DNA of 64,000 nt from positions 5,963-69,962 of the forward strand of contig VEQR01000004.1 of NCBI GenBank assembly GCA_018883125.1, given 5' to 3'. The notes beneath the pieces were generated by a model that saw only the letters and a list, made by a program, of their open reading frames with translations, was not told the origin of the DNA and made no database searches. The stretch's first letter is position 1, and the number at the start of each line of letters is the position of its first letter. Below, in pieces: positions 6,422-40,360 of the stretch. The stretch comes from Candidatus Kapaibacterium sp. GTDB lineage: Bacteria; Bacteroidota; Ignavibacteria; Kapaibacteriales; Kapaibacteriaceae. Both the position numbers and the translations under genes were made by a program.

Positions 6422-7684
6422 ATGAGCATCCTTCACGAGAACCTTACGTCACAAGCAGAAGCCCTACGTGCAAAGCGCGCCACGTTGCTGAAAGAGCGTG
6501 GTGAAACCGTGCTTGGGAGTGTGACCATCGAACAGGTGCTCGGTGGCATGCGCGGTGTACCTGCTTTGGTCTGCGATACGTCAAGCGTATCGGCCGATGA
6601 AGGTCTGCGCATCCGCAACACACCAATCCTTGAGCTTACCGACATCACGCCGGAAGAAACGTTCTGGCTGCTGGTTACGGGTAAGCGCGCCACGGACGAC
6701 GAGCGCAAGGAGCTCAGCGCCATCTTCGCCAAGTACTACGCGGTTCCACAGTACGTTGTGGACACGCTCAAGGCCATGCCAAAGGATTCGCATCCGATGG
6801 CGATGCTCAGCGTAGGTCTTCTGGCGATGGAACGCGAAAGCGAATTCCGTGCTGCCTACGATAAGGGGGCAGGCAAGGATGTCCTGTGGCAATCAATGGT
6901 CAACGATGCCGTACGACTTGTGGGCTCCATCCCGGGTATCGCAGCCGCGATCTATCGTATTCGCTTTGACAAGGGCGATGTGATCGCACCTCTGACAGAT
7001 GATAATGACTTGTCGAACAACTTCGCCCACATGCTCGGCGTAAGTAACGATGCATCGTGGAAGGAACTGATCCGCCTGTATCTGGTGCTTCACTCGGACC
7101 ATGAAGGCGGCAACGTCAGCGCTATGACGTCGTACGTTGTCAGCTCGGCCCTGAGCGATCCGTTCTACAGTGTTTCAGCCGCCATGTGTGGTCTTGCAGG
7201 CCCCCTGCATGGACTTGCAAATCAGGAATGTCTGCGATTCATCATGGACGTGCGCGAGCAGTTTGGTGGCGTCCCAACGGATGAACAGCTGACAGAGTAC
7301 ACATGGAACCGCCTGCGCAACGGCCAGGTCATCCCGGGATATGGTCACGCGGTTCTGCGCGTTACAGACCCGCGATTCACGGCCTTCCACGACTTCGGCG
7401 TCAAGCATGGTCTTACGGACGAGAACGTCCAGATCGTTCACAAGATCTTCCGCCTCGTGCCTGGTATCCTCAAGGAGCACGGCAAGGCCAAGAACCCATG
7501 GCCAAACGTTGATGCAGGTTCCGGTTCGCTCCTTTACGCCTACGGCATGACCGAGTTCGATTTCTACACCGTGATGTTCGGTGTCAGCCGCGCAATCGGC
7601 CTCTGCTCGCAGATGGTCGTCAACCGCATGATGGCTTCTCCGATCGTTCGTCCAAAGTCGCTGACGCTGGACGAGCTGAGCTAA
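6422..7684 (+). CDS. gltA: Citrate synthase (eukaryote-like type)
   Basis: GYGHAVLRVTDPR and SDHEGGNVSA motifs. Start taken at MSILHENL (ATG 6422); the upstream extension was rejected. Confidence 0.9.
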   Translation: MSILHENLTSQAEALRAKRATLLKERGETVLGSVTIEQVLGGMRGVPALVCDTSSVSADEGLRIRNTPILELTDITPEETFWLLVTGKRATDDERKELSAIFAKYYAVPQYVVDTLKAMPKDSHPMAMLSVGLLAMERESEFRAAYDKGAGKDVLWQSMVNDAVRLVGSIPGIAAAIYRIRFDKGDVIAPLTDDNDLSNNFAHMLGVSNDASWKELIRLYLVLHSDHEGGNVSAMTSYVVSSALSDPFYSVSAAMCGLAGPLHGLANQECLRFIMDVREQFGGVPTDEQLTEYTWNRLRNGQVIPGYGHAVLRVTDPRFTAFHDFGVKHGLTDENVQIVHKIFRLVPGILKEHGKAKNPWPNVDAGSGSLLYAYGMTEFDFYTVMFGVSRAIGLCSQMVVNRMMASPIVRPKSLTLDELS

Positions 7685-7686
7685 GC

Positions 7687-7896
7687 GAAGACTGAAGACT
7701 GAAGACTGATGACTGATGACTGATGACTGATGACTGATGACTGAAGACTGAAGACTGATGACTGAAGACTGATGACTGATGACTGATGACTGATGACTGA
7801 TGACTGAAGACTGATGACTGAAGACTGATGACTGAAGACTGATGACTGAAGACTGAAGACTGATGACTGATGACTGATGACTGATGACTGATGACT
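7687..7896 (+). repeat. 30-unit perfect heptamer tandem array with two unit types, GAAGACT (11) and GATGACT (19)
   Basis: Read unit by unit. There are no indels and no substitution other than A/T at unit position 3. It starts 2 nt after the gltA stop codon. Confidence 0.97.
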
Positions 7897-7910
7897 GTCG
7901 TTGTGAATCG

Positions 7911-7980
7911 TAATCAGTAATTAGTCATCAGTAATCAGTCATCAGTCATCAGTAATCAGTAATCAGTAATCCGTAATCGT
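7911..7980 (-). repeat. About 10-unit heptamer array in inverted orientation (TCATCAG / TAATCAG)
   Basis: TCATCAG is the reverse complement phase of GATGACT. A 14-nt spacer separates it from the forward array. Confidence 0.9.
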
Positions 7981-8006
7981 CCGCCGGTTCCTGTGAAAAT
8001 GTAAAA

Positions 8007-8035
8007 AGCCCGTCACATTGACGGGCTTTCTATCT
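8007..8035 (+). terminator. Rho-independent terminator after gltA and its repeat arrays
   Basis: Stem AGCCCGTCA (8007-8015) / TGACGGGCT (8019-8027), followed by TTCTATCTTTG. Confidence 0.7.
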
Positions 8036-8060: not shown

Positions 8061-8137
8061 TGGTGGACGCTACTAGATTCGAACTAGTGACCTTTACGAT
8101 GTCAACGTAACGCTCTAACCAACTGAGCTAAGCGTCC
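8061..8137 (-). tRNA. tRNA-Val(GAC): tRNA-Val (anticodon GAC), CCA encoded
   Basis: Manual cloverleaf: acceptor GGACGCT/AGCGTCC, D arm GCTC..GAGC, anticodon stem TTACG/CGTAA with loop TTGACAT, T arm ACTAG-TTCGAAT-CTAGT, then ACCA. Confidence 0.9.
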
Positions 8138-8202: not shown

Positions 8203-10308
8203 ATGTCGATCATTTCCATCATTCTAGGTCTAGGCGTCCTGGCCTTGATCGTCGCCGTCATCTTCCGTCAGCGGGTGCTGTCGGTGAAGGTTGAGGATGG
8301 GGCTTCTTCGCCGGAAGAACTCTCACGACTGACCGAGATCTCTACGGCAATTGCCGAGGGAGCAATGGCGTTTCTGAGCCGTGAGTACCGCGTGCTCGGA
8401 CTGTTTATGGCCCTGTTTGCCGTGCTGATCTTTTTCACTGTGGACCACGGAGCCCACACAGCACTTGCCTTTGTATGCGGTGCAGCAACATCGGTTGCCG
8501 CTGGCTACATCGGCATGAAGATCGCCACCGTGGGCAACGTTCGCACAGCGTCGGCTGCACGCGTTTCGCTACAGAAGTCGTTCTCGGTTGCCTTTGAATC
8601 GGGTGCCGTGATGGGATTTGGCCTTACGGGTCTTGCCGTTGTCGGCCTTATCCTCGTGTGGCTTGGTATCGATGCGATGCTCCCTGGTGTAAGCCGCGAA
8701 GTGCAGATGGAAATTCTCTCCGGTTTTGGTCTCGGAGGTTCGGCTGTGGCTCTGTTCGGTCGTGTAGGTGGTGGTATCTATACAAAGGCTGCCGACGTTG
8801 GGGCCGACCTTGTGGGTAAGGTCGAAGCAGGAATCCCGGAAGACGATCCACGCAACCCAGCAGTTATCGCCGACAATGTTGGCGATAACGTTGGCGATAT
8901 CGCCGGCATGGGCGCAGACCTCTTCGGCTCGGTGGCAGAATCGACCTGTGCCGCTTTGGTCATTGGTGCTGCCAGCTACGCTGCCATGCCCGCCGGTGCT
9001 GCCAATATGAACATCGTCCTCTTCCCGATGCTTGTTAACGGCGTTGGGATTGTTGCGTCAATCCTTGCTCTTCCGTTTGTGCGTGCCTCAAGCGAAGAGA
9101 AAGTAGAAGGGGCTCTGAAGAACGCCCTCATCATCTCAACGGTCATCATGCTAGCTGCTCTGTATCCGATTACGAACTGGGCCTTTGGAACCACATCCTT
9201 CATGGTCGGCACTGTGTTGGTGAACGGCATGGGTGTGTTCACGGCGCTGGCTGTTGGTCTTGTTGCCGGACTTCTCATTGGTCTTGTGACAGAGTTCTAC
9301 ACGTCGCACCGCTACAAGCCCGTGCGCGAAGTTGCCGATGCTTCCAAGACCGGTTCGGCAACGAACATCATCTATGGTCTTGCACTCGGCTACAACTCTG
9401 CTGTTATCCCAATGCTCCTCATTGCTATCAGCGTTGTGGTGGGGTACTCGTTTGCCGGCATGTATGGTATCGCACTCACAGCCATCGGTATGCTGGGCAC
9501 GATTGCGGTTGGTCTTACGATCGATGCCTATGGCCCAACGTCGGATAACGCCGGTGGTATCGCCGAAATGGCCGAGATGGGCAAGGATATCCGCAAGCGC
9601 ACAGACGCTCTCGACGCAGCCGGCAATACAACGGCCGCAATCGGTAAGGGCTTCGCCATCGGCTCGGCTGCGCTGACATCTCTTGCGCTCACCAGCGCAT
9701 TCCTCACGCGTGCGAAGGTTCAGGGCACTGCCCTTGCTATCACCGATCCGCACGTTCTTGCCGGACTTCTGGTAGGGGGCGCACTGCCGTTTGCCTTTAG
9801 CGCCATGACGATGAAAAGCGTCGGCAAGGCCGCCTTCGCCATGATCGAAGAAGTCCGCCGTCAGTTCCGAACCATTCCTGGTCTGATGGAAGGCAAGGCC
9901 AAGGCCGACTATGCCAAGTGCGTTGACATCTCGACGGCTGCATCGATCAAGGAGATGATCGCTCCTGGTCTGCTCGTGATCCTCTCGCCCCTTGTCGTCG
10001 GCTTCCTCTTTGGTGTGCAAATGCTTGCCGGACTCCTCATTGGCTCTCTGGTTGTGGGCGTGATGCTGGCCATCAGCATGGCTAACTCCGGTGGTGCATG
10101 GGACAATGCCAAGAAGTACATCGAGACAGGCGTTCACGGTGGTAAGGGCTCGGATACGCACAAGGCCGCCGTCGTAGGCGACACTGTGGGTGATCCGTTC
10201 AAGGACACGTCGGGACCGGCTCTCAACATCCTTATCAAGCTGATGGCCATCATTTCGCTGGTGTTTGCCGGCGCGTTCGCCTCAAGCGGCGGAATCTTGT
10301 TGAAGTAA
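8203..10308 (+). CDS. hppA: Membrane-bound ion-translocating pyrophosphatase, K+-dependent subtype
   Basis: About 16 TM helices; motifs [38 protein letters not shown] and [14 protein letters not shown] (Ala rather than Lys in the GNTT[A/K]A determinant). Confidence 0.93.
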
Positions 10309-10372
10309 TTACGGAATTACTGAAGTACTGAGTTACTGAAGTACGGAATTACTGAATTACCGAATTACAGAA
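10309..10372 (+). repeat. 8-unit octamer array, [G/T]TACNGA[A/G]
   Basis: TTACGGAA TTACTGAA GTACTGAG TTACTGAA GTACGGAA TTACTGAA TTACCGAA TTACAGAA, starting at the base after the hppA stop codon. Confidence 0.9.
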
Positions 10373-10374
10373 GG

Positions 10375-10414
10375 ACGGGAGTTGCGAGGTGTTCGCGGCT
10401 CCCGTTTCTTTTTT
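10375..10414 (+). terminator. Rho-independent terminator of hppA
   Basis: Stem ACGGGAGTTGCGA / TCGCGGCTCCCGT (with G-U pairs), followed by TTCTTTTTT. Confidence 0.75.
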
Positions 10415-19540: not shown

Positions 19541-20014
19541 ATGAACATCATTGATCGGCTTAACCTTCTCGAGCACCCTGAAGGGGGCTATTACCGCGAA
19601 TACTATCGATCGTCGATCACCGTGCCTACAGAGAGGGGGCCGCGCTGCGCAGCCACGTCAATCTGGTTTTGTTTGCCGGTAGGTGTTGTGTCGAACTTTC
19701 ATCGGCTATCGAACGATGAGATCTGGTATTGGCACGAGGGCGGACCCGTGGTGGTTCACATCATTCATCCGGATGGACGGTACGAGCATGTTGAGCTTGG
19801 CTCGCCCCCTTTCATGCATGCCGCTGTATTGCCGGCAGGAACATGGTTCGGTGCGGAGTCACTCGAACAAGATGTGCTTGTATCAGCAATGGTAGCACCT
19901 GGCTTTGAGTTTGAAGACTTCGAATTGGCCACGCGAGCTGGGCTTCTGGCTATGTATCCGCAGCATGGAGAGATTATACAGCGATTGACTCGAGAAGAGG
20001 GACAGAGGTACTGA
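19541..20014 (+). CDS. Cupin-fold protein (DUF985-like)
   Basis: LEHPEGGYYREYYRS N-terminal motif and cupin-like core. The last five codons and the stop codon lie in a 16-bp tandem repeat. Confidence 0.65.
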   Translation: MNIIDRLNLLEHPEGGYYREYYRSSITVPTERGPRCAATSIWFCLPVGVVSNFHRLSNDEIWYWHEGGPVVVHIIHPDGRYEHVELGSPPFMHAAVLPAGTWFGAESLEQDVLVSAMVAPGFEFEDFELATRAGLLAMYPQHGEIIQRLTREEGQRY

Positions 20015-20037
20015 GGGACAGAGGTACTGAGGGACGA
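19999..20037 (+). repeat. GGGACAGAGGTACTGA x2 plus a partial copy (octamer pair GGACAGAG / GTACTGAG)
   Basis: Exact 16-mer at 19999-20014 and 20015-20030, partial copy to 20037. The first copy contains the cupin stop codon (20012-20014). Confidence 0.9.
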
Positions 20038-21420: not shown

Positions 21421-21421
21421 A

Positions 21422-21516
21422 GTGACTAGTGACGAGAGATGAGTGACGAGTGACGAGAGACGAGAGACGAGTGACGAGTGACGGAGGTACGGAATGACGG
21501 AATGACGGAATGATGT
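21422..21516. repeat. 9 heptamers (GTGACGA / GAGACGA) followed by 4 octamers (AATGACGG type)
   Basis: Read unit by unit: heptamers 21422-21484, octamers 21485-21516. Confidence 0.85.
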
Positions 21517-21645
21517 TCTCCCGCATAATAGCCCATGGCCTTGGCCATGGGAACGCGATGTTGACGGAATGACGTTCTCCCGCATAATAGCCCATGGCCT
21601 TGGCCATGGGAACGCTGGCCATGGGAACGCTGGCCATGGGAACGT
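21504..21645. repeat. Composite repeat: a 53-bp unit x2 (1 mismatch) plus TGGCCATGGGAACGC x3, each 53-bp unit carrying the palindrome CCCATGGCC-TT-GGCCATGGG
   Basis: 53-bp copies at 21504-21556 and 21563-21615. 15-mers at 21601-21615, 21616-21630 and 21631-21645. Palindromes at 21532-21551 and 21591-21610. Confidence 0.9.
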
Positions 21646-30937: not shown

Positions 30938-31537
30938 ATGAATCAGTCCCGTTCGGATGCCATTGAAGGCATTATTCGCGATTCGATCGCCGTCAAAGAG
31001 AGGCTGCTGCACGAACAGACGGAAGCAATTCGGTCAGCCGGAGCAGTTCTTGCCCAATGCGCCAATCTTAATCGGTTGATCATGCTCTGCGGCAACGGTG
31101 GAAGCGCTGCCGATAGTCAGCACATCGCCGCAGAACTGGTCGTGCGCCTTCGCAGCGACGTGAACCGTCGGGCGATCAAAGCCCTAGCTCTAACGACCGA
31201 CAGCAGCGTTCTGACGGCAGGCGGCAATGACTACGGCTTTGACCGTGTCTTCAGCCGTCAGATCGAGGCATTTGGAGACTCGGGTGACGTACTTATCGCC
31301 ATCTCCACAAGCGGCACATCGAAGAACGTTGTCCTCGCCGTGGAGGAAGCTCGTAATCGCGGTGTGCGCACAATCGGTCTCCTCGGTGGAACCGGCGGCG
31401 TCCTGAAAGAGTTATGTGATCATGCGGTTGTGGTCCCATCTTTGGTTACCGCCCGCATTCAGGAGTGCCACATCATGATTGGGCATATCTGGTGCGAGAT
31501 GATTGAGGAAGGAATTACGGAGTTACGGAATTACTGA
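30938..31537 (+). CDS. gmhA: Phosphoheptose isomerase (SIS domain)
   Basis: GNGGSAADSQHIAAEL and AISTSGTSKNV motifs. The last 7-8 codons and the stop codon are encoded by octamer repeats. Confidence 0.8.
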   Translation: MNQSRSDAIEGIIRDSIAVKERLLHEQTEAIRSAGAVLAQCANLNRLIMLCGNGGSAADSQHIAAELVVRLRSDVNRRAIKALALTTDSSVLTAGGNDYGFDRVFSRQIEAFGDSGDVLIAISTSGTSKNVVLAVEEARNRGVRTIGLLGGTGGVLKELCDHAVVVPSLVTARIQECHIMIGHIWCEMIEEGITELRNY

Positions 31538-31616
31538 AGTACGGAATGACGACCATCGTCATTCACGCGAAAGCGGGAATCCATCCTTGATGACTGATGA
31601 CTGATGACAATGACGA
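31515..31616 (+). repeat. Five octamers (TTACGGAG TTACGGAA TTACTGAA GTACGGAA TGACGACC, 31515-31554) and four heptamers (GATGACT type, 31589-31616)
   Basis: Read unit by unit. The gmhA stop TGA (31535-31537) lies inside unit 3. Confidence 0.85.
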
Positions 31617-39796: not shown

Positions 39797-39802
39797 AATG
39801 AG

Positions 39803-40290
39803 TTACTGAGTTACTGAATTACAGAGGTACAGAAGTACAGAAGTACTGAGGTACAGAAGTACAGAAGTACAGAAGTACCTAAGTACAGAAGTACTGAGGT
39901 ACAGAAGTACAGAAGTACCTAAGTACAGAAGTACTGAGGTACAGAAGTACCGAAGTACCGAAGTACGGAAGTACTGAGGTACAGAAGTACAGAAGTACAG
40001 AAGTACAGAAGTACAGAAGTACAGAAGTACAGAAGTACAGAAGTACAGAAGTACAGAAGTACTGAAGTACAGAAGTACTGAGGTACAGAAGTACAGAAGT
40101 ACCGAAGTACCGAAGTACAGAAGTACCGAAGTACCGAAGTACCGAGGTACAGAAGTACAGAAGTACAGAAGTACAGAAGTACAGAAGTACAGAAGTACAG
40201 AAGTACAGAAGTACAGAAGTACAGAAGTACAGAAGTACAGAAGTACAGAAGTACTGAGGCACAGAATTACGGAAGTACAGAGACACAGGA
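39803..40290. repeat. 61-unit octamer tandem array, consensus GTACAGAA (37 exact units)
   Basis: Read unit by unit with no indel over 488 bp. Variants: GTACTGAG, GTACCGAA, GTACCTAA, GTACGGAA. Pure GTACAGAA runs of 10 units (39979-40058) and 13 units (40147-40250). A 40-bp higher-order unit is repeated at 39859-39898 and 39899-39938. Confidence 0.97.
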
Positions 40291-40360
40291 AACACGGTGG
40301 TAGCAATGACGTAGGGGCAAGGCGTCGTCTTGCTGATTCGTCTTGCGCACTCGCGGTGCC

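Follow-up and report, generated by a model that had tools for sequence, protein, structure and literature searches.

A pair of heptamer arrays downstream of gltA in a Candidatus Kapaibacterium genome and its probable origin by slippage

Long simple sequence repeats (LSSRs) of prokaryotes have units of 5-11 nt, a sporadic phylogenetic spread and a chiefly non-coding location; heptamers are their most abundant class in many prokaryotes, and polymerase slippage has been proposed as their source (Mrazek 2007, as summarized in PMC4679880 and PMC4692102). What makes certain bacteria amass a single 7-nt word in their intergenic DNA, at dozens to hundreds of places, has been asked since the cyanobacterial short tandemly repeated repetitive (STRR) sequences of 1990, and the question was raised again by the 2007 survey and by two papers of 2015. 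Here we describe a direct array of 30 heptamers and an inverted array of about 10 that lie just downstream of the citrate synthase gene gltA in the uncultivated freshwater bacterium Candidatus Kapaibacterium sp. (assembly GCA_018883125.1, contig VEQR01000004.1, positions 5,963 to 69,962 of the forward strand). This whole stretch of 64,000 nt is called the window below, and coordinates are counted from its first letter. The gltA pair is a new example of a described repeat type and not a new kind of element. It is probably a slippage-driven heptamer repeat that acquired its inverted partner at the DNA level, is one member of a family of 7- and 8-nt arrays spread over the genome and sits, most likely as a passenger, in the 3' untranslated region (UTR) of gltA.

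The closest described repeats are those of TAACTGA, which form arrays of up to 43 units and occur in marine Beggiatoaceae, cyanobacteria and five Bacteroidetes (MacGregor 2015, PMC4679880). They are intergenic, their forward frames are full of stop codons and their reverse frames are open, and they have no RNA structure of their own. Long arrays of this type in Bacteroidetes and Microcystis are mixed with other heptamers, those of Microcystis share one strand, and relatives can be found that have no array at the site (PMC4679880). The Beggiatoaceae sets consist of 2-6 units in forward orientation just upstream of start codons, and TGACTGA is listed as a variant differing by one base, which in the Beggiatoaceae genome studied never occurs in repeated form (PMC4679880, Table 3). 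A second group comprises GGGAATC in Xanthomonas and GGGGA(C/T)T in Nostoc, genome-wide intergenic heptamer arrays, typically about 4 units long, whose G-tracts form G-quadruplexes (Rehm et al. 2015, PMC4692102). Each Xanthomonas genome has 70-75 convergent array pairs, most of them lying no more than 50 bp away from a stop codon on the coding strand; arrays occur with the same gene neighbours across related species, where they vary in length and sequence (PMC4692102). The heptanucleotides of Calothrix are mentioned in the same paper (PMC4692102).

The gltA pair occupies the region between gltA and a convergent tRNA gene, which has the following features:

6422-7684, plus strand: gltA, citrate (Si)-synthase coding sequence, 420 aa from ATG (NCBIfam NF007128, 499.7 bits, cut-off 344)
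7687-7896, plus strand: direct heptamer array of 30 units (exact parse; Tandem Repeats Finder (TRF) score 346, 29.7 copies, 0% indels)
7897-7910, plus strand: 14-nt centre or spacer GTCGTTGTGAATCG between the two arms (sequence parse)
7911-7980, minus strand: inverted heptamer array of about 10 units (parse; TRF 10.6 copies)
8005-8029, plus strand: intrinsic terminator hairpin of 11 pairs, 6 of them GC (terminator scan; kept in the related loci L001-L008 and L033)
8061-8137, minus strand: tRNA-Val (GAC), convergent with gltA and bounding the intergenic region (ARAGORN; Rfam tRNA, 72.5 bits)

The TAA stop codon of gltA (7682-7684) is followed by GC and then, from 7687, by the direct array. A reading made earlier from the sequence alone had described 30 indel-free heptamers behind a citrate synthase gene, with A or T at unit position 3 as the sole variation, and exact parsing reproduces this in full: 19 units are GATGACT (T) and 11 are GAAGACT (A), their order is AAATTTTTAATATTTTTATATATAATTTTT, and the 210 bp contain neither a further substitution nor an indel. 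Thirty exact tandem units are far beyond chance. The source assembly appears to be metagenome-derived, and both the copy number and the unit order within such a perfect 210-bp repeat are uncertain. On the plus strand the inverted array reads TAATCAG four times and TCATCAG three times, together with TAATTAG, TAATCCG and TAATCGT. Its reverse complement is therefore GAT[T/G]ACT, as the sequence-only reading had it, with a GATTACT-type majority and three GATGACT units, and at its distal edge it decays toward GTAATCC and GTAATCG. The arms are 83% complementary over 69 nt and can be paired in numerous registers; GAAGACT, which makes up 11 of the 30 left units, has no complement in the right arm, and the GATTACT type has none in the left. 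All three sense frames of the array are closed by recurrent TGA codons and all three antisense frames are open, again as had been noted; no open reading frame (ORF) of at least 40 aa is listed on either strand within 7687-7980, on the antisense strand because it has no start codon across the array. The array is not a CRISPR (clustered regularly interspaced short palindromic repeat) locus, its units being contiguous with no spacers between them, and inspection finds no GANTC or GATC methylation site inside the units.

As an iterated unit of 5-11 nt at a non-coding site, with a period that is over-represented in the lineage and a patchy distribution among relatives, the array falls within the LSSRs, which are a descriptive class and not a mechanism. 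The gltA pair thus consists of heptamer arrays of a recorded kind, fitting the general class on every testable feature, while strict membership of the TAACTGA or the G-quadruplex families fails. Read in the phase of TAACTGA, the direct array is made of TGACTGA (18) and AGACTGA (11) and the inverted arm of TTACTGA, so that the units are one base (TGACTGA, TTACTGA) or two bases (AGACTGA) away from the published word. The intergenic site, the unstructured direct array, the same-strand orientation and the stop-filled forward and open reverse frames are all alike, and the LMTDD- and SVISHQS translations are identical to the entry for TGACTGA in that paper. However, TAACTGA itself is absent from the window arrays (it occurs twice in the window, both times outside them), 8-nt versions of the core coexist with the heptamers, and hosts of the Kapaibacterium type are not among the taxa of PMC4679880. 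Unlike the Beggiatoaceae sets, the gltA pair has 30 units placed 2 nt after a stop codon, an inverted partner, and a convergent tRNA as the next feature downstream. It shares with the Xanthomonas repeats the convergent pair near a stop codon, but GATGACT and GAAGACT contain no G-run and form no G-quadruplex. Resemblance to the STRR heptamers of heterocystous cyanobacteria, reportedly described by Mazel et al. in 1990 with units such as CCCCAGT, TTGGTCA and similar, extends to dispersed intergenic tandem heptanucleotides, whereas the units and the phylum differ.

The history of the site can be followed in the nearest gltA relatives, other species with a gltA DNA identity of 85-90% that we call congeners. 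The closest of these in the genome collection are metagenome-assembled genomes (MAGs) labelled Candidatus Kapaibacterium or Ignavibacteria, mainly from freshwater; exact-protein look-ups of gltA, the pyrophosphatase and the upstream permease found no sequence of the same species. These relatives speak against a Rhizobiales genome with octamer VNTRs of the Brucella type, which the abundance of 7- and 8-nt arrays might suggest. L001 has the palindromic design of the window with the long arm on the opposite side, namely (GATTACG/GAGGACG)10, the window's spacer in the form GTCGTTCTGATTG, and (GTAATCC/GTAATCG)58, and its variation is again mostly two-state. Since both the spacer, which is single-copy in the window and is present among relatives in L001 alone, and the distal right-arm units GTAATCC and GTAATCG match, the window can be linked to L001. 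Four congeners (L002, L003, L006 and L033) have GGTTTTG, GGTTTGA or GGTGTGG heptamers, a central terminator hairpin and then complementary C-rich heptamers. In L004 and L005 the arms are not complementary, the left one being made of G-rich heptamers and the right one of GTAAnTCn octamers; L017, L018 and L025 have (AGCAGCG/AACAGCG)7-9 with no inverted partner; and L007 and L008 are array-free, with a gap of only 38-58 nt. Eight genomes were compared for the fit of a left arm to its own right arm: six of them give 16-21 matches over 21 positions and L004 and L005 give 11-13, and arms compared across the two clades match at 10-17 of 21. Judged from these species comparisons, the array site in the gltA 3' gap is old and recurrent, with unit sequence, length and presence all turning over between species. 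Fast turnover of a microsatellite, the outcome that the sequence-only reading had set against its own proposal of selection, is thus largely what is found at the level of species.

Arrays occur in the gltA 3' gap of about 11 of 36 congeners and in few of the other gaps. This enrichment was not used as evidence, being confounded by shared ancestry (three clades) and by crude gene calls. The unit flavour varies from species to species elsewhere as well. The (GGGTTTT)n arrays of L003 (4270-4301 and 4376-4408) are telomere-like, have their C-rich complement across the central terminator and could form G-quadruplexes, which places them closer to the Xanthomonas and Nostoc repeats than the window array; a unit of the GGGTTTT type would qualify for that family. 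Just upstream of gltA in L036, (AGTGCCA)8 and (TTCCCAG)10 lie next to each other (2825-2965) and are mutually unrelated, and octamer arrays of TCTAGCTA and GTCAGCTA are found about 1.4 kb further upstream (1274-1548). Two more distant relatives, L030 and L031, have a 29-nt unit (TGCCGGGAGGCATATGCTGCCGGGTAACT) in 3-4 copies, about 80-250 nt after gltA. Across L001-L036 the gltA protein is 77-98% identical to that of the window, and the labels include Chitinophaga pinensis, Patescibacteria, Didemnitutus, Bradyrhizobiaceae and Melioribacter; several of these labels must be wrong.

The gltA gap is one of six intergenic regions of the window that are filled with 7- or 8-nt arrays, as found by TRF over the whole window. 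This family membership, like the published descriptions of the repeat type (PMC4679880, PMC4692102), had escaped the sequence-only reading. The other five regions are:

10307-10378, plus strand: about 9 octamers of the TTACTGAA type, from the membrane pyrophosphatase stop codon up to the terminator at 10373-10407
19996-20035, plus strand: 5 octamers GGACAGAG/GTACTGAG, which overlap the 3' end of a Cupin_5 gene (final codons and stop)
21421-21513, plus strand: (GAGTGAC)9 and (GGAATGAC)3, in the gap between minus-strand DUF3179 and beta-lactamase family genes
31511-31608, plus strand: (GGAATTAC)5, which overlaps the stop of a SIS-domain gene, followed by a hairpin resembling repetitive extragenic palindromic (REP) sequences and by (TGATGAC)3
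39799-40281, plus strand: about 59 octamers, for the most part GTACAGAA, that take up the whole space between two minus-strand genes and end 3 nt away from the start codon (ATG) of an SDR gene

Brought into a common phase, the units read TGACTGA, AGACTGA, TTACTGA, TTACTGAA, GTACTGAG, GTACAGAA, TGACGGAA and GGACAGAG, and a K-A-C-N-G-A core is common to the 7- and the 8-nt units. Octamers are nearly as prominent as heptamers in the window, which distinguishes it from the described LSSRs. A census of arrays with at least 3 copies in the window and 80 related loci (589 kb) gives 22 arrays of period 7 and 8 of period 8, together 30 of 45, and at most 5 of any other period, with the proviso that very short periods are at a disadvantage under the TRF score threshold. 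The core is on the plus strand in all eight forward arrays regardless of the direction of the neighbouring genes, the sole reversed array being the right arm of the gltA pair. Of the 16 4-kb bins of the window, 14 have a positive GC skew, and the one-strand orientation may be a replication-strand bias.

Several observations concern individual arrays. That at 39799-40281 also contains GTACTGAG, GTACCGAA and GTACCTAA variants, has a fatty-acid hydroxylase gene on the side away from the SDR gene, and creates a spurious 167-aa ORF (39803-40306, minus strand) with no Pfam match. Adjoining the 7- and 8-nt arrays upstream of the beta-lactamase-family gene is a compound repeat region (21503-21644) with two copies of a 59-bp repeat that are 98% identical and with TGGCCATGGGAACGC in three copies. 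The REP-like hairpin GTCATTC(A/C)CGCGAAAGCGGGAATCC between two arrays (31548-31590) has one copy in the window, and several tandem or nearby copies lie downstream of gltA in the congener L014 (about 2430-2630). An origin of the gltA pair from an expanded hairpin of this kind (GTCATTCCCGCGAAAGCGGGAAT) was considered and dropped, given the single window copy (31562) and the opposite order of the arms. A stop-codon trap for read-through ribosomes was likewise rejected as a general rule, because GTACAGAA and the GGTTTTG and AGCAGCG units of congeners contain no stops.

Replication strand slippage, by one or more units a step, would lengthen and shorten the arrays, and a single T-to-A change at unit position 3 could have spread through the left arm to give the clean two-state pattern. 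Since no further substitution has occurred across 210 bp, the present units appear to be young copies of each other. Recent expansion or homogenisation, which the sequence-only reading had offered as one of its options, is the standard account of such a pattern and suffices for it. The inverted partner would have arisen in DNA, by template switching or inverted duplication about a central sequence, and the arms would have diverged later; in the sister clade the central sequence of such an inverted duplication would be the terminator hairpin. A likely history begins with an ancestral (GATTACN)n/(NGTAATC)n palindrome, in which a T-to-G change would have given GATGACT, now in both arms, and a T-to-A change GAAGACT, now in the left arm only.

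The order of the two unit types is statistically random-like. There are 14 runs where about 15 are expected (P = 0.43), the longest repeated block is 7 units (P = 0.80) and k-mer diversity is unexceptional (P = 0.49-0.71), so that the order is indistinguishable from a random permutation and gives no sign of being under selection. The sole outlier, a post-hoc statistic, is that T-runs are only of length 1 or 5 (P about 0.005), a hint that an A-T5 block and AT pairs may have been copied.

Several points weigh against slippage as a full account. One-unit slippage should cluster the variants, yet A and T units are interspersed, and therefore multi-unit slippage or recurrent change is needed; multi-unit slippage is plausible because alternating two-unit patterns recur in L001 and in the array at 19996. 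The presence of GATGACT in both arms needs inter-arm transfer or parallel mutation. Array instability is inferred from differences between species. Slippage alone also leaves unexplained why the K-A-C-N-G-A core occurs at independent loci with two periods, and why arrays with unrelated units occupy the gltA 3' gap in three clades.

The position of the pair relative to the transcript bears on whether it might act as RNA. No terminator-like site was found between the gltA stop codon and the arrays, and the hairpin at 8005-8029, which the sequence-only reading had also noticed, is the only intrinsic terminator found downstream. In congeners it lies either directly 3' of gltA or 3' of their arrays. 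Because its minus-strand reading has TTTTTACATTTT past the stem, it probably serves both gltA and the convergent tRNA-Val. The arrays therefore most likely sit in the gltA 3' UTR, as had been proposed, and would be co-transcribed with gltA: the sole terminator found is 3' of both arms, and the conserved hairpin directly follows gltA in array-free congeners. Transcribed in this way, the right arm could form an imperfect duplex of about 65 base pairs with the nearest part of the left arm, leaving about 20 unpaired units 5' of it, and the gltA mRNA would probably carry 300 nt of repeats as its tail, within which 20 bp could pair perfectly. The long imperfect hairpin envisaged earlier is indeed found by folding: the proximal hairpin (7820-7990) has a free energy of -84.6 kcal/mol (z -10.5), perfect runs of 20 and 13 bp and a centroid almost the same as the minimum free energy structure.

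Such stability raises the possibility of a functional RNA: either the arms would be selected as a 3' UTR duplex, or the repeated UGACUGA would be a docking site for a regulator of the S1, Csp or CsrA-like kind that binds RNA. In both cases the element would set the rate at which gltA mRNA decays, for instance because RNase III cuts it or because 3' exonucleases are kept off. We consider this unlikely, though it is the strongest of the alternatives. Binding of such regulators has been proposed in print for the near-identical TAACTGA unit (PMC4679880), the window arrays adjoin stop or start codons closely, and the layout of direct plus inverted array recurs with other units in L001, L002, L003, L006 and L033. 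The full 3' UTR also folds well (-114.7 kcal/mol, z -7.9), but as an ensemble over many registers whose centroid has no long stem, and the left arm alone is unstructured (-5.2 kcal/mol, z 0). The arms are imperfectly complementary and the private variant of each is unpartnered, and most of the window's other arrays stand alone, lacking an inverted partner. Because a terminator separates the arms in the sister clade, they are unlikely to lie on one RNA there, and L007 and L008 do without arrays. The array hairpin fails as an intrinsic terminator, being followed by GUCCGCCGGUUCC with no U-tract directly after it. In the Rfam search nothing but the tRNA passes the gathering threshold, the generic matches to miRNA precursors scoring 28-44 bits where 80-104 are needed. 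For the Xanthomonas repeats no regulatory role was found (PMC4692102). Nothing shows selection for pairing of the arms, and the selection on unit sequence or hairpin that the sequence-only reading had also entertained is countered by the unpartnered variants, the random-like order and the congeners with other heptamers or none. Under the slippage account, any effect on gltA mRNA stability would be a by-product and not a selected function.

Inverted repeats between genes also bring dispersed DNA elements to mind. The REP sequences and BIMEs of enterobacteria are palindromic and intergenic, lie in 3' UTRs or between convergent genes and can stabilise the upstream mRNA, and the Foldback transposons of eukaryotes have long inverted termini made of short tandem repeats. 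The gltA pair might accordingly be a foldback-type mobile element with heptamer ends, or its arrays might be the product or the working site of a DNA enzyme or binding protein with sequence specificity, serving as a nucleoid or gyrase site or as a barrier between convergent, highly transcribed genes. An element of this sort seems improbable. Empty sites do exist in L007 and L008, the core recurs at independent loci in 7- and 8-nt periods while the array heptamers show no enrichment outside arrays within the window, and the forward arrays keep to one strand under a positive GC skew. Inspection against the two array-free congeners, however, reveals no duplicated flank and hence no target-site duplication, the gltA pair has no dispersed identical copies, and no transposase or other candidate protein was identified. 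Units vary by locus and by species, which is unexpected for a copied element and sets these simple-repeat arms apart from REP/REPIN sequences and transposable elements of the MITE (miniature inverted-repeat) type. Arms of 83% identity around a 14-nt spacer would moreover be poor candidates for cruciform extrusion.

A metagenome scan anchored on the spacer touches the same question. It gave six matches, of which five are chance occurrences in coding DNA. The sixth (L085, contig Ga0075163_10001706, 5051-5130) lies on an unrelated, AT-richer contig and has the 15-nt ACTGTCGTTGTGAAT found at the window spacer, after which come five heptamers of the GTAATCG type, TAA and four inverted units. This palindrome is situated between two co-directional ORFs that by inspection resemble a PadR-family regulator and a permease. 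The recurrence of ACTGTCGTTGTGAAT with a GTAATC-type inverted heptamer pair would suit a DNA-level element, but a rough estimate of the chance expectation for the pattern is itself several matches. The likeness is either chance combined with convergence or a shared module.

It is very improbable that the array length, the unit order or the inverted arm is an artefact of a misassembled low-complexity region. The relatives are all MAGs, perfect repeats of 210 bp and 470 bp are hard to assemble, and contigs of Elizabethkingia reportedly break off within repeats of this sort (PMC4679880). Yet the independent assembly of L001 has a like architecture with the spacer between the same genes, arrays lie at the gltA 3' spot in ten other independent assemblies, and the flanks on both sides are colinear with those of relatives.

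We thus return to the slippage-driven repeat as the preferred account and keep a small probability for a specific mechanism that crosses phyla, because the shared core with its two periods, the arrays on one strand and the arrays in the gltA gap of three clades are otherwise unexplained. It is a long shot that the arrays mark where a sequence-specific factor has acted or still works, be it a regulator that binds RNA or an enzyme that acts on DNA; this factor might be shared with the carriers of TAACTGA and might have been moved between phyla by phages. On that view the gltA pair would act as a 3' UTR module under regulation; as long as no specific factor or function emerges, current understanding is unchanged. 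What the locus does add is a new lineage for heptamer arrays, the Kapaibacteria, and a clean case in which 7- and 8-nt periods have one core and therefore fit poorly with a purely length-based explanation by polymerase footprint. The congeners, with presence, absence, unit turnover and inverted pairing at one site, form a natural series for the birth and death of arrays.

Such arrays might travel from host to host on phages or prophage-like regions. Among IMG/VR viral contigs, (TAACTGA)4 occurs in 32 (L091-L122) and (TGACTGA)4 in 4, the shuffled controls giving 1 and 3. Viral carriage was accordingly set aside for TGACTGA arrays, which are no commoner than shuffled controls, and is suggestive for TAACTGA alone, with no direct bearing on the gltA pair. 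TGACTGA arrays do occur elsewhere, though they are not notably common among viral contigs: two IMG/VR contigs (L088 and L090) have 9-13 TGACTGA units directly after a probable stop codon, in DNA bearing GCGATCGC, which we take to be the HIP1 word typical of cyanobacteria.

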